Part shown: positions 34,201-37,764 of the stretch, piece after piece | Numbering within the stretch: the stretch's first letter is position 1 | Layout of the letters: each line of letters opens with the position of its first letter | Origin: Nitrospirota bacterium | GTDB taxonomy: Bacteria > Nitrospirota > Nitrospiria > JACQBW01 | Direction: 5' to 3' | Length of the DNA stretch: 37,764 bases | Assembly: GCA_016201875.1 (NCBI GenBank) | Contig: JACQBY010000028.1 | Coordinates: forward strand, 1-37,764 | Notes under the pieces: model-generated | What the model was told of the DNA's origin: nothing | The model's database searches: none | Seen by the model: the letters and a program-made list of their open reading frames with translations, nothing else | Translations under genes and position numbers: made by a program

Positions 34201-35461
34201 CATAACTATCGTAATTACTAAAACTGGTTGTATATGTTTTCCCATCACGTATAAGAGATTTGGAAGCAAGCAACGCCTCAAATATCTGGTTATCAGTTAA
34301 AGTTGCTATCAGTCCATTCCAGTTCCCATTACCAATCTGATCATTAGATAAATAAGCGCTTGGCGACCAGGTGTAATTTTCTGTTTGAATAACAGTAGCA
34401 CCCGAAAGGATTTCCTTTTTGATGAGTCTTCCAATTTGCCAGAGTTTATTTATCCCTGTGCCGGAATTGGGTAACGACCCAAAACTAAAAAAGGTATAAC
34501 GTTCAGTCTTACAGCCAGATTCAGTTATTGTCGTAACTTGATTTGTGCTGTTCGCAATATTCGTGGGATTTGCGGCATAAGCATATGTCCAACTGGCGGA
34601 ACTTATGCCTCTTCCGCTAAGAGACCTGCTTGTCACTACTGTGAAAGGGATGGAGACGGCTCCAGTATCAAACCCAATGTCGTTATACCCGTAGGTTAAC
34701 ACCGCTCCGGACGGATAGGTTACTGTATTCATCTCATATTGGCCGGAGTTACTGCTGTTGTTAACGCTATTATAGGTATATTTCCAAGATGGCCCCACAG
34801 GCGGGGTGACCTGGCTTAAAAAGATATTGCAATTAATCGCTTGATACGAATAATTGTAAACCTTTCCATTTACGTTCATTGACGTCAGATATTTTCTTTT
34901 ATCAAGACATGTGCCGCCCTTCACAGTATAAGAAAAAGTAATCCCACGGCTAGCGCTATCTGTTACTGAATTAATGATTGTCGGGTTGGTGCTATCATAC
35001 GAAACAGTAATTGTATTTCCGTTTGGAGAGGTAATTGTTCCGACCTGGTAAATGAGAACATTATCCACTGTGTAATAGGCATTCGTATTTGGAAACGTAT
35101 AGACAGTTCCATCCGTTAAAATTAATTGATATTGTGTGGCACACCCCGTCGCCGGTTTTCGATAAATCCAATGTTCAACACTGATCATATCGCAAGAATT
35201 ATTTTTACTCTGGTAAAAGGGATGCAAAGAACCATCGGGCATTTCTATAATCGGATTATTCGGGAGTGACGGGTTACTACTTCCTGTTCCAAGAGGATTT
35301 CTAATCCTCCCAAAATGAAAAGACCATCCGAGCCCCATAATGCTTTTTTCATTATAAGCAACCAATCCTGGATTGGTCACATCCCGTCTTCCCCAGATCC
35401 TGCCGTTATAAGACCGCTGTATTTTTAAATCCAAACCCCCCATTCCCAGGCAGAATAGCAT
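31259..35461 (-). CDS. RHS/YD-repeat protein body ending in FN3-like x2 plus a CARDB-like domain; N-terminus is frameshifted away
   Basis: 1400-aa ORF with dozens of YD repeats (YSYDPINRI, YGYDALGNRV, YHYDRLGNV...). There is no ...ARYYDP..GRF..DP core end. The tail has two repeats, GATLNG.VN.NG....WFEYG...Y.FR..A.N..G...G.D.TFTT (31898-32185 and 31628-31897), and a CARDB-like end, DLVVSSLSA...GTYYLIANADDNNVIAETNENNN (31262-31627). Confidence 0.9.
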   Translation of the reverse strand: MLFCLGMGGLDLKIQRSYNGRIWGRRDVTNPGLVAYNEKSIMGLGWSFHFGRIRNPLGTGSSNPSLPNNPIIEMPDGSLHPFYQSKNNSCDMISVEHWIYRKPATGCATQYQLILTDGTVYTFPNTNAYYTVDNVLIYQVGTITSPNGNTITVSYDSTNPTIINSVTDSASRGITFSYTVKGGTCLDKRKYLTSMNVNGKVYNYSYQAINCNIFLSQVTPPVGPSWKYTYNSVNNSSNSGQYEMNTVTYPSGAVLTYGYNDIGFDTGAVSIPFTVVTSRSLSGRGISSASWTYAYAANPTNIANSTNQVTTITESGCKTERYTFFSFGSLPNSGTGINKLWQIGRLIKKEILSGATVIQTENYTWSPSAYLSNDQIGNGNWNGLIATLTDNQIFEALLASKSLIRDGKTYTTSFSNYDSYGNPQTITETGDSSRTTALTYYYITATNIVKGHPATNNVTVNGESFPTGYSYDTNGNLTQINQYGVITNYFYTNGNLTSRTDANNNSISFQYSYGVISQITNPYYSISKSINWEGTVAWERDGNSHTTYYSYDPINRITTITPPLDTATNITYDNSAGSYWKVAKSSGFTQNNVDGLGRVISTSNSEGINTQTTYNTCGQVSYKSYPYTATNIGDSFSYDVLDRVINVTHPDTKTQGYNYANGNIVITNERGYSTSYGYISFGNPDEKRLTSVVDATGTTTYSYNAVGSLKTIVHPATPQGSFQRTFVYSTKNFLTSETHPETGTITYSPDNIGNVLSRLDGRGTISYVYDQINRLTNINYPTSADNATIGYDNANNRTSLSSSAASYSYQYDAQNRLIGQTFTIGSMNFTTSYGYDSAGNNNNMTYPSTRALSYGYNTANQITSLTGYVSNVTYHPSGGIASISYANGVATSQGYDNRYRIQTINAPGIVQYTYGYDGVGNVTGITDGVNSAKNRGMGYDPLDRLTSASGVWGSLSYGYDALGNRVSQILNSTATTNYNYSSSNLLASLSGATTASYTYDLSSNMTFIRGYNLAYDYANRLTSSTISGGTVTFTYDGEGKRIKKFNSSTGKTLIYHYDRLGNVIVEADGAGVAQTEYLYLKSQPVSKIIKDNSPTVVTGSASSLSQTGATLNGTVNPNGYTTSVWFEYGLSTTYGSSTSTQYFSGTLVGAVSAVISGLSPNTIYHFRIDATNSAGTNRGLDFTFTTLASPPVVTTAAASGIALTTATLNGSVNTNGVTANGWFEYGTTTATQALSSGTNVSFSQALTGLTANTLYHFRAGASNTGGTGYGSDATFTTPSVDLVVSSLSAATSATVGTSYTVTDTVTNLGISPTGAGGFVEAYYLSSTSTFSTATATWIGYRWVDTLGAGGSSTATTTFTMPNWVNAGTYYLIANADDNNVIAETNENNNTLTMTGTVIVK
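35358..35452. repeat. Direct repeat of the rhs 5' region, copy 1
   Basis: 95 nt matching 37671-37764 with one substitution and one 1-nt indel in the C run. The match runs to the window edge, so its true length is unknown. Confidence 0.9.
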
Positions 35462-35696
35462 CGGTATGAATAAGGTTCAGATTTCCCGTAAATGGATCTA
35501 CGCTTTCCGACACCTGTTGAAAAGAGGATGTCGTTTTTGACATTGGATTATCTGTTCCCTTTTGGTTATAAAAAGGATCATCATAAGTCGATGACTCGGC
35601 GCGAACCAAGGATTGATTCACAAATATAACCAACAGAAAATTAATAAAAAACAAGATTCCAAAAAGAACTCGGAAGTTTTGAAAAAAACGTTTCAT
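35406..35696 (-). CDS. N-terminal fragment of the same rhs gene (signal peptide plus first strands), separated by a frameshift
   Basis: 96-aa ORF. Signal peptide MKRFFQNFRVLFGILFFINFLLVIFVNQSLVRA, then VDPFTGNLNLIHTDAILPGNGG. This continues in another frame as LDLKIQRSYNGRIWG in the 1400-aa ORF. Confidence 0.8.
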   Translation of the reverse strand: MKRFFQNFRVLFGILFFINFLLVIFVNQSLVRAESSTYDDPFYNQKGTDNPMSKTTSSFQQVSESVDPFTGNLNLIHTDAILPGNGGFGFKNTAVL

Positions 35697-35798
35697 AATA
35701 AGTTTTCCCTTTATTTAGTAGAGCTTTACAAAAACCCATTCATTTTAATTAGACAAACTCATATCCAGAAAGAAAAATAGTTCGTGTCGTATTGAAAT

Positions 35799-36097: not shown

Positions 36098-37102
36098 CTA
36101 CGGCTTTGGTAATATTTCGCTTTGAATGGGCCCATCTGATTTATAAATGTCCCAAATTTTTCTAGTCATAATATCTAACGCAGAACCTGAACCAGGATCA
36201 TAAGACTCACCAATTATATGGTTCATTTTTTTAAGCCAGCTTTCATGTTGATCCCACGGTTGGAATCCGGCGTGCTCAGGGGACGTGGAATCCCCCGCGG
36301 TATGAATAGCATTGCTAACATGCATAAGAGCCGTATCATGATCAAATTGGTTGCCCGTTTCAATAAAAGAGGCCTCGCTTTGACGAGCCTGGAAAATTTC
36401 ATATGCGATAAATCCATTTGCCAGTTCCCAAGCTCTCGTGGCTGACTGGTCTGAGCTATCTCTTCCGTCTCTCATTGCATGCTGATATGCCATTTCACTG
36501 GATTGATCCGCGTCAATGATTACTTGTTGCCGAGTTAAAATGCTTAGATCATGTAAACTCAATTGGGACAAAACTCGATTTATTGACATTTGATGAACAG
36601 GCCATATGTGAGTTGGCCATTTTCCTGAAGAATCAGAAAAACGATAAGGATTATCAAAAGAATATGAATAAAGGTTGAGGCCGAACGGAGTATTTAAAGC
36701 TGACTTAGGGTGCCCATGTAGTAATGCAGGATCCACACTTAAAAACCGCCCAATACCTGGATCATAATATCTGGCTCCCAGATTATGCAAACCGGTTTCA
36801 ACATCAGTCTCTTTTCCAATAAACCGATGAGAGTTTGGAAGGTTGGGGGACTCATTCAGGTTTACTTCATCGCCAAATGGGCCGTAATCGACATTCCAAA
36901 TTACAGTTCCACCGCTGTTGGTCATCGCTACCGGTGAACCCAAGGCATCGTTATGATAATAAAGAACCGTATCCGCCCCTTTTACAAAAGGGGGAGAAAG
37001 CCACGGCCCAAACAGAATTAGGACTACTGCCACCAAAGATCTTAGCTTTGAATTAATGATCTTCTCTCTATGGTTCATAATGATCTTCTCTCTATGGTTC
37101 AT
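36098..37102 (-). CDS. Stand-alone RHS repeat-associated core 'tip' with a C-terminal putative toxin domain (zinc phospholipase C / P1-nuclease-like?)
   Basis: 334-aa ORF. A hydrophobic signal-like leader (LRSLVAVVLILFGPWLSPPFVKGA) is followed by the RHS core: VLYYHNDALGSPVAMTNSGGTVIWNVDYGPFGDE...FIGKETDVETGLHNLGARYYDPGIGRFLSVDP...NLYSYSFDNPYRFSDSSG. A 174-aa tail (36101-36622) carries H170QMSINRVL, H208, and H267TAGD271STSPEH277A. Confidence 0.8.
   Translation of the reverse strand: MNHREKIIMNHREKIINSKLRSLVAVVLILFGPWLSPPFVKGADTVLYYHNDALGSPVAMTNSGGTVIWNVDYGPFGDEVNLNESPNLPNSHRFIGKETDVETGLHNLGARYYDPGIGRFLSVDPALLHGHPKSALNTPFGLNLYSYSFDNPYRFSDSSGKWPTHIWPVHQMSINRVLSQLSLHDLSILTRQQVIIDADQSSEMAYQHAMRDGRDSSDQSATRAWELANGFIAYEIFQARQSEASFIETGNQFDHDTALMHVSNAIHTAGDSTSPEHAGFQPWDQHESWLKKMNHIIGESYDPGSGSALDIMTRKIWDIYKSDGPIQSEILPKP
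37055..37102. repeat. Perfect 24-bp tandem duplication covering the start codon of the RHS-tip ORF
   Basis: aatgatcttctctctatggttcat occurs at 37055-37078 and again at 37079-37102, producing MNHREKII-MNHREKII. Confidence 0.95.
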
Positions 37103-37630
37103 AAAACCCTCATATATATGGTTAAAACTGGTATTTAATACAATCCAGACAAACTAAATAAGCCACACCACCGAATTAATAAAATTTCTTTGTCACCTCG
37201 GCAGCCCGGCTTCCTTTATGTTTCCTAAAGACCCGTTGCTTTATACCCTGCTGTCACCAGCAGTTTGCCCTGACAGAAGGTGAATTCTTTAAGACGAATT
37301 TCGTTTTACTGAGATTCGTAAGAAGGCCAGTCTGAACATCCCTAGAATGACCCTATCATTGCCTGTCGCCGCCATTTGCTAAAGATTAAAAGTTCGCCCC
37401 TCTCCGTTGCTCTACAAATCATTAAACAGGCAGCTATTTTCGTATAGCTTCTAAACGTCGGCACCTCCGGCTAAAGTTCATGAAGAAGAACTTTTTACAA
37501 CTTTTTTAAAAAGGAAGAAAAATAAGATTCCTGTTCATACCATAAAGATAAGACATCCGTCACCTGTCAATTTGGACAGGTCACTAGCCAAGAATCGCTA
37601 TATAATCATGGGGAGTTGAATCCTTAATCT

Positions 37631-37764
37631 TTAAACAATTTTTTTGTATTTAAGAAAAATGATCGCATAGGCAACCAATCCTGGATTGGTCACATCCCGT
37701 CTTCCCCAGATCCTGCCGTTATAAGACCGCTGTATTTTTAAATCCAAACCCCCATTTCCAGGCA
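37631..37764 (-). CDS. 3' end of a truncated second copy of the rhs N-terminal region (5' end outside the window)
   Basis: My minus-strand translation is ...LPGNGGLDLKIQRSYNGRIWGRRDVTNPGLVAY, then the unrelated AIIFLKYKKIV* (stop at 37631-37633). It is in frame across the G run, here G5. Confidence 0.65.
   Translation of the reverse strand, partial: PGNGGLDLKIQRSYNGRIWGRRDVTNPGLVAYAIIFLKYKKIV
37671..37764. repeat. Direct repeat of the rhs 5' region, copy 2
   Basis: Matches 35358-35452 (see copy 1). Confidence 0.9.

Follow-up and report, generated by a model that had tools for sequence, protein, structure and literature searches.

Rhs loci are a textbook case of toxin diversification by recombination and, to our knowledge, the Rhs arrays so far described all grow from the 3′ end of a single-chain gene. 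The locus considered here lies at one end of a 37,764-nucleotide stretch of DNA from a Nitrospirota bacterium (assembly GCA_016201875.1, contig JACQBY010000028.1), the whole of which is called the window below. It comprises a gene for a YD-repeat shell, a separate upstream gene, the tip, that encodes an RHS core and a toxin domain, a candidate immunity gene between the two and, beyond the tip, a second and truncated copy of the 5′ end of the shell gene, referred to as copy 2 (copy 1 being the start of the shell gene itself). The window is the entire contig C34 of a metagenome-assembled genome (MAG) of 1.88 Mb that is in 200 contigs and 83% complete, and all of the relevant genes in its list of open reading frames (ORFs) are on the minus strand.

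The closest described systems are the arrays of orphan rhs-CT/immunity modules and the recombination between main and orphan genes reported by Poole et al. 2011 (PMC3150448) and Koskiniemi et al. 2014 (PMC3967940); in Salmonella a deletion between main and orphan rhs has been documented (PMC3967940). The likeness is that polymorphic toxin/immunity modules appear stacked beside a structural gene and that displaced units keep a fragment of that gene as homology, here in the window and in three other loci designated L042, L035 and L032; in the orphan arrays, recombination between the retained pieces can delete a module. Unlike those arrays, the modules here lie upstream of the shell and not downstream of it, the homology kept is the 5′ end of the shell and not the core-coding region, and the tips have their own start, Shine-Dalgarno sequence and signal peptide, with no fusion needed for expression. 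The other comparison is with single-chain Rhs proteins and TcB-TcC cocoons (TcdB2-TccC3, 4O9X; RhsA, 7Q97), with which a YD shell, an RYYDP...GRF...DP core and a variable toxin after that core are shared. In contrast to them, shell and core are on separate polypeptides that carry a Sec signal each, Fn3/CARDB domains form the end of the shell, and the tip, with only about one YD hairpin plus the plug, is far less than a TcC. By analogy, the locus is best described as a split Rhs system in which the orphan-module arrays already known are mirrored, and no published account of such an arrangement was found in the literature. We think it probable that copy 2 is a shell-5′ remnant, the scar of a tandem array whose unit is leader, tip, immunity gene and shell-5′ piece.

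The direct repeat and the copy-2 junction

In gene sense the order is copy 2, a 528-nt leader (37630-37103), the tip, a 93-aa ORF, a 96-aa signal-peptide ORF and a 1400-aa ORF. Copy 2 itself occupies 37631-37764 and, from the ORF list, its translation and assembled contigs of four sequencing runs, is a truncated 5′ part of a YD-shell gene that runs open to the end of the window. It contains the distal copy (37667-37764, with G5 in gene sense) of a direct repeat whose proximal copy (35354-35452, with G6 in gene sense, the C run of 35436-35441) lies within copy 1: blastn aligns 99 nt at 97%, and a repeat finder pairs 35354-35446 with 37667-37759, also at 97%. The two are in direct orientation, 2313 bp apart, and share an identical core of 83 nt (35358-35440 and 37671-37753), 78 nt of it downstream of the G run in gene sense; they differ by A/G at 35357/37670, by C6 (35436-41, plus strand) versus C5, and by one C>T. 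No further copy was found on other contigs of the MAG. On the minus strand copy 2 reads PGNGGLDLKIQRSYNGRIWGRRDVTNPGLVAY, then AIIFLKYKKIV and a stop, homology to copy 1 ending after ...NPGLVAY. Thus far the original prediction, which had placed the repeat at 35358-35452 and 37671-37764 and had its homology give way at that point to 11 unrelated codons and a stop, is borne out by alignment and translation. All four of the items that it had listed between the copies (some 530 bp without ORFs, the tip, the membrane immunity candidate, and the promoter region and signal peptide of copy 1) are indeed present, though the first needs correction in that it also holds a c-di-GMP-I-type riboswitch-like element at 37278-37196.

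Is the junction real, or an artefact at the end of a contig? The stretch is held by five public runs, four of which (X1-X4), all groundwater metagenomes, were used in the form of Logan k=31 contigs. The junction is spanned in 4/4: over 36948-37700 in X1 and X2, over 37113-37757 in X3, and over 36893-37670 plus the repeat in X4. Since independent k=31 contigs from four runs carry it, it is present in the reads and is not a product of scaffolding, and the suspicion of an artefact that had been attached to the proposal falls away. In X2, the repeat and the next 11 nt (ATTTCCAGGCA) form one 94-nt unitig, and because the MAG contig stops at the last base of that shared unitig, the window end is a branch of the assembly graph. 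From this node the samples continue in several ways: (a) C6 leads into the window’s own upstream sequence, U1; (b) C5 with two substitutions leads into U1 or a variant, U2, that has 26 differences in 132 nt; and (c) C5 leads into U3, with 14 differences in 118 nt. With the listed differences applied, the shell frame runs on uninterrupted through U2 and U3 (...QKGTDHPVSGTTSTFQKVSESIDPFTGNLNLIHTDAILPGNGGLDLK... and ...SRTTSSFQQVSESVDPLTGNLNLIHSDAILPGNGGLDLK... respectively). As all the continuations seen, U1, U2 and U3, are open in that frame, copy 2 is the 5′ end of a shell gene whichever of them belongs to it, and the claim that it is a genuine second rhs/YD-shell start holds. Upstream homology beyond the repeat falls to 80-88% within about 100 nt. 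The repeat has at least three upstream and at least two downstream partners in the samples, and depths in X1 are 35 for the repeat, 21.5 for the junction, 12.7 for the shell side and 9.7 for the cassette, as the tip/immunity pair with its leader is called here. An exact 26-mer from the repeat had no match in JGI metagenome contigs, and exact-protein look-ups of the immunity and tip proteins led to no other contig.

Copy 1 is split by a +1 frameshift at its G6 run. Its first frame (35696-35406, 96 aa) encodes a Sec signal peptide and the mature N-terminus as far as PGNGG, and its main frame (35461-31259, 1400 aa) about 1080 aa of YD repeats, two Fn3-like domains and a CARDB domain, as assigned with Pfam. 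The C6 form is in contigs of X1 and X4; X2 has no C6 contig, and there a C5 unitig overlaps the cassette-side unitig. In that sample the in-frame G5 therefore adjoins the cassette, so the frameshift is polymorphic and an open frame coexists with the cassette. Tracts (a) and (b) differ by two linked substitutions besides the G count, a pattern that speaks for exchange or conversion of alleles between the copies rather than for slippage. Programmed frameshifting at G6 was considered and dropped, given the in-frame allele in X2 and a different shift near the same place in another locus, L026. There (7950-8000) the shell of GCA_040961595.1, 57% identical to that of the window, is also frameshifted, by -1 in a C run between VDP and F; thus, of about 25 loci, 2 have the N-terminal stretch of the shell broken, at points no more than 20 codons apart.

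Remnants and gene order in other loci

The loci compared were the neighbourhoods of the closest shells and 20 more found by scanning species genomes with an alignment of shell N-termini, 25 in all with the window; the scanned ones come from Nitrospirota, Geobacteraceae, Thermodesulfobacteriota and others. The fullest counterpart is L042, on a 328-kb Nitrospirota contig, with the order tip1, imm1, a 73-aa ORF, tip2, imm2, shell, in which the 73-aa ORF copies the first 67 codons of the shell. Two repeats underlie it, 4172-4778 with 6054-6660 (tip leader and 5′ half of the tip, 92.6%) and 5913-6030 with 7835-7952 (shell 5′ end, 90.7%), and the fragment is joined to the tip leader at a CTTTT microhomology, the same leader standing before tip1 too. 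In L035 the order is tip1, imm1, a 32-codon copy of the shell signal peptide, tip2, imm2, shell, and its tip1 has the toxin family of the window tip. L032 has a tip, an immunity gene and then a shell 5′ ORF that breaks after ...NPALLA, one codon off the ...NPGLVAY of the window. The comparison of the locus with relatives that had been proposed thus shows the repeat-bordered layout complete in two loci and partial in a third; what it does not support, given the conserved gene order, is the insertion of a cassette. Further truncated or chimeric shell 5′ ORFs were seen at L048 7878-8300 (a 140-aa ORF of an Oryzomonas MAG) and in P0130, where a shell 5′ ORF switches after PGNG into the C-terminus of a multicopper oxidase.

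What is the ordinary arrangement for shells of this family? From one to three same-strand tip genes stand upstream of the shell in 15/25 loci (14 of the 24 when the window is set aside), and the order tip, small gene or genes, plug-less shell occurs in L026, L028/L029, L030 and 10/20 of the scanned loci. A tip just after the shell stop codon is found in 4/25. With tips upstream in some loci and downstream in others, the family is split in both gene orders. In L038, L040, L041 and L050, which are Geobacter-type plus one betaproteobacterial, the tip starts 115-170 nt past the shell stop. The RHS core is inside the shell ORF in 0/25. The C-terminal domains of the tips, and the genes after them, vary from locus to locus (SUFU-like, RraB-like, transmembrane), and small genes that differ by locus are as expected for immunity genes.

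A probable module array and its alternatives

Given the observed repeat and junction, the in-frame continuations, the conserved gene order and the equivalent remnants in three other loci, how might such an array arise? The shell gene would encode a Sec-exported YD shell without a plug, and the genes just upstream of it a separately exported tip, plug plus toxin, and a membrane immunity protein. We infer that the array would have been made by duplication or addition of modules through an illegitimate join of a shell 5′ region to a tip leader, copy 2 being what was left at the border of the next upstream module. The repeats would then exchange sequence by homologous recombination or gene conversion, and such exchange would explain both the 83-nt identical patch in flanks of 80-88% similarity and the in-frame G5 tract beside the cassette in another sample. 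Another tip/immunity module would on this account lie beyond 37764, and tip and shell would work together. A paralogous tip/immunity pair is present on contig C102 of the same MAG; C34 and C102 may be neighbours, and the C102 pair is one possible candidate for that next module.

Several points weigh against the array. L026, L028 and L030 have an upstream tip without any shell-5′ remnant. The argument for a physical or functional coupling of tip and shell, which is to be thought of as a presumption, is one of gene order. The contig stops at the open end of copy 2, and k=31 contigs are unable to phase through the shared node of 94 nt; the X1 depths show mixed strains or extra copies, which such contigs leave unseparated. 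Past the junction, L032 and the window have unrelated sequence, so that plain inheritance does not account for the units; an inherited unit boundary, which breaks one codon apart might bring to mind, was rejected on that ground.

Might there instead have been two complete tandem shell paralogues, from the upstream one of which a single deletion took everything from about codon 125 to before the tip leader? Copy 2 does have its own diverged signal-peptide region (U2/U3), and several shell-like 5′ ends coexist in the samples. We regard it as unlikely nevertheless: in L042 the leader is repeated before both tips and the join is at a microhomology, which fits duplication of a unit and not deletion of a shell, remnants of 32, 67 and about 120 codons in the three other loci suggest a recurrent process, and two full shells flanking a tip occur in 0/25 loci. 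The suggestion that two tandem rhs genes had existed, the upstream one having lost its shell, was thus closer than insertion to what is seen, though the comparative data favour an array of modules in its place.

A deletion-based on-switch was the other idea in the original prediction, namely that the tip/immunity cassette is excisable and that recombination between the two shell-5′ copies restores an in-frame shell. Its ingredients are there: 83 identical nt in direct orientation 2313 bp apart, G5 and open-frame continuations in copy 2, the comparable Salmonella main-orphan deletion (PMC3967940), and copies that do seem to exchange, as the C5 tract on the cassette side in X2 indicates. A crossover in the 78-83 identical nt would formally join the G5, in-frame 5′ end to the shell body. 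However, such a crossover is not needed for restoring the frame, which is already open in X2 with the cassette present, and the (a) and (b) tracts, with their linked substitutions as well as the G count, are not related by simple slippage. Moreover, what would be rebuilt is an in-frame shell only in the formal sense of an intact rhs: the gene is a plug-less YD shell ending in Fn3/CARDB, and the deletion would discard the only plug/toxin together with the immunity gene, a cassette that is the conserved partner of such shells. No deletion joint is present among the k=31 contigs, which cannot phase across the 83-94-nt node, and the X4 contig that goes back 2313 is the opposite joint, in a sample of 3-6x, and is explicable by k=31 collapse. 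As an account of the locus, the switch is therefore quite doubtful.

Could the arrangement be a metagenomic mis-join through shared repeats, the 83-nt repeat and a conserved core-coding stretch of about 200 nt at 36752-36947? The multiplicity of partners on either side of the repeat, the branching of an alternative toxin domain at 36714, and the fragmentation and incompleteness of the MAG would all allow it. Against this, each junction is in unitigs of several runs, copy 1 is distinguishable by C6 and two substitutions, so that an assembler could thread it, and the same architecture is met in independent assemblies, one of them the 328-kb contig of L042; a mis-join is accordingly very improbable.

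The insertion of a cassette into rhs with duplication of its target is not supported. The tip/immunity pair is the normal upstream partner of these shells, in the ordinary order of the family, and the core is never within the shell ORF; therefore the module was not inserted into an rhs gene. Homology that decays upstream to the extent given above is not that of a fresh target duplication, and a repeat of at least 99 nt that continues as diverged homology does not match the short target duplications of transposon or integron type. No recombinase or transposase is among the ORFs of 33000-37764, nor among the larger ORFs scanned in 21978-30458 (RtcB, glucokinase, glycogen enzymes). A 2313-bp circle or identical tandem repeat, as the X4 contig might have implied, was rejected on depth, the cassette being at about 1x in X1 and X2 and X4 being a 3-6x sample with k=31 collapse.

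Shell, tip and immunity candidate

The YD repeats of the 1400-aa ORF match PF05593 at E 2e-34. Pfam finds neither an RHS core nor a toxin in that ORF, PF03527 being solely in the separate 334-aa ORF of the tip. In-frame homologues with an intact N-terminus exist (P0003, P0006-P0008), and relatives at 50-58% identity have a signal peptide followed by YDDPFY.QKG...VDPFTGNLNL.HTD..LPGNGGLDLKIQRSYNSRIWGRRD, most of them carrying varied Ig-like tails in place of a core; among 40 related genomes, none has a close orthologue of the shell.

The tip gene (36098-37102, minus strand, 334 aa) encodes, by PF03527 and the family alignment, a signal peptide or transmembrane segment, the RHS core and a toxin domain of about 200 aa. 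It starts at an ATG with GAGGG 5 nt upstream and a hydrophobic N-terminal signal, and the core motif ARYYDP..GRFLSVDP is invariant in the alignment of tips. The first eight codons are doubled by a perfect 24-nt tandem duplication (37054-37101, MNHREKII twice), the second unit of which is missing from Logan contigs of X1, X2 and X4. Contigs of X1-X3 leave the window exactly at the boundary of core and toxin, 36714, into different sequence (TGAGGGATTC...). Such a branch indicates that, in strains or copies occurring together with this one, the same leader and core are followed by an alternative toxin domain. The MAG holds none of the loose-end sequences of U2, U3 and this alternative toxin.

The C-terminal domain of the window tip has 701 relatives, at the C-termini of proteins of up to 4114 aa. 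In an alignment of 43 of these, H42, H80, H139, D143, H149 and H167 are invariant, and W34, D69 and E171 are kept in at least 90%, a spacing (W, H, D, H, H, D, H, H, E) that matches what we take to be the zinc ligands of B. cereus phospholipase C. The AlphaFold model of the domain has a pLDDT of 87.6; its top Foldseek matches are zinc phospholipases C, though weak ones (E 0.39, TM 0.33-0.36), and among PDB sequences a profile search picks out alpha-toxin (E 0.0014). No Pfam model reaches threshold on the window domain, and relatives of it match PF00882 and PF07217 (Het-C) weakly, at E of about 2e-3. Compared with the zinc-dependent phospholipase C and Het-C toxins, then, the ligand spacing is alike and they are the top fold and profile matches, at scores that are weak; from sequence and a predicted model, the domain is probably a phospholipase-C/Het-C-like toxin. 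A near-invariant Trp opens it (36612-36620, tip residues ~161-164, in GKW before P) and aligns with the residue after the cleavage site of the TccC3 core. To judge from that alignment, autocleavage of the core might leave at the new N-terminus the Trp that serves zinc phospholipases C as a metal ligand.

The immunity candidate (35799-36080, minus strand, 93 aa in the ORF list) has three hydrophobic spans, as judged by eye, and no Pfam match. With the gene behind the paralogous tip of C102 it shares 30% identity, and the stand-alone pair there shows that such pairs are complete, self-starting genes. A hairpin element of about 116 nt, with a weak Rfam match to WsnRNA46, recurs across the MAG, at C102 1792-1907 (L011), at C143 2297-2413 (L012) and on some 30 further contigs; on C102 the paralogous tip gene is split by it, and a variant in X3 carries it at window position 37113. 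As for neighbouring genes, glgB, a GH57 enzyme and malQ (24516-30458) flank the Rhs locus of the window, and the paralogous cassette of C102 is flanked by glgC and, where the contig ends, an IS transposase (L011 2538-2999).

The tip leader and a riboswitch-like element

From the junction, the leader begins with a non-coding stretch on the minus strand (37279-37630) that is without a match elsewhere in the MAG, contains a near-palindrome, GTGACCTGTCCAAATTGACAGGTGAC, at about 37583-37558, and presumably holds the tip promoter. A scan for promoters and terminators gave no convincing sigma-70 site, and the sites scored were no more numerous than in shuffled sequence. Next, on the sense strand for the tip (37196-37278, minus), is an aptamer that resembles the GGC variant of the c-di-GMP-I riboswitch (Rfam RF03167), with 39.6 bits and E 3.6e-7 over the full length of the model, below the Rfam gathering score of 59. 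Two paralogues of it are in the MAG: one at C143 2010-2096 (minus strand, 58.9 bits) before a PilZ-like ORF, the other, with 51.1 bits, at C169 35334-35456 (minus strand), upstream of an ORF of 1717 aa where CARDB repeats lie. At the DNA level the C143 copy and that of the window share 83% identity, and this suggests that a leader was copied recently. Relative to the paralogues, two helix pairs are broken in the window copy. A fold of the RNA from 37290-37090 has a hairpin with a U-rich tail (37149-37212, minus strand) that overlaps the 3′ strand of the aptamer and is a possible expression platform. Does the leader respond to c-di-GMP? Like c-di-GMP-I (GEMM-I) riboswitches of the RF03167 type (Rfam clan CL00126), the element has full-length coverage and a sense-strand position in a 5′ leader, and on that resemblance a response may be supposed; unlike them it is sub-threshold, with its broken pairs, and it is unique among the 25 loci, a search of the other 24 with Rfam and an nhmmer profile having found no riboswitch before a tip.

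Implications

Where does this leave Rhs diversification? In this locus the container and the plug-toxin are predicted to be separate exported proteins, and modules would accumulate 5′ of the shell, and the handle repeated among them would be a piece of the shell start. Taken further, and tentatively, this may be a two-part Rhs weapon in which modules are stacked before the shell, the shell-5′ copies serve as recombination handles that add, delete or convert modules and toggle G6 and G5, and the proximal module is, here, under c-di-GMP control. For annotation, small ‘RHS core’ genes beside ‘YD repeat proteins’ should not be read as debris, and short shell-5′ ORFs should be read as the scars of arrays. 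If it is true that the proteins come together once exported, a single shell could be used with any of several exchangeable warheads, and the arrays would record how these are swapped.

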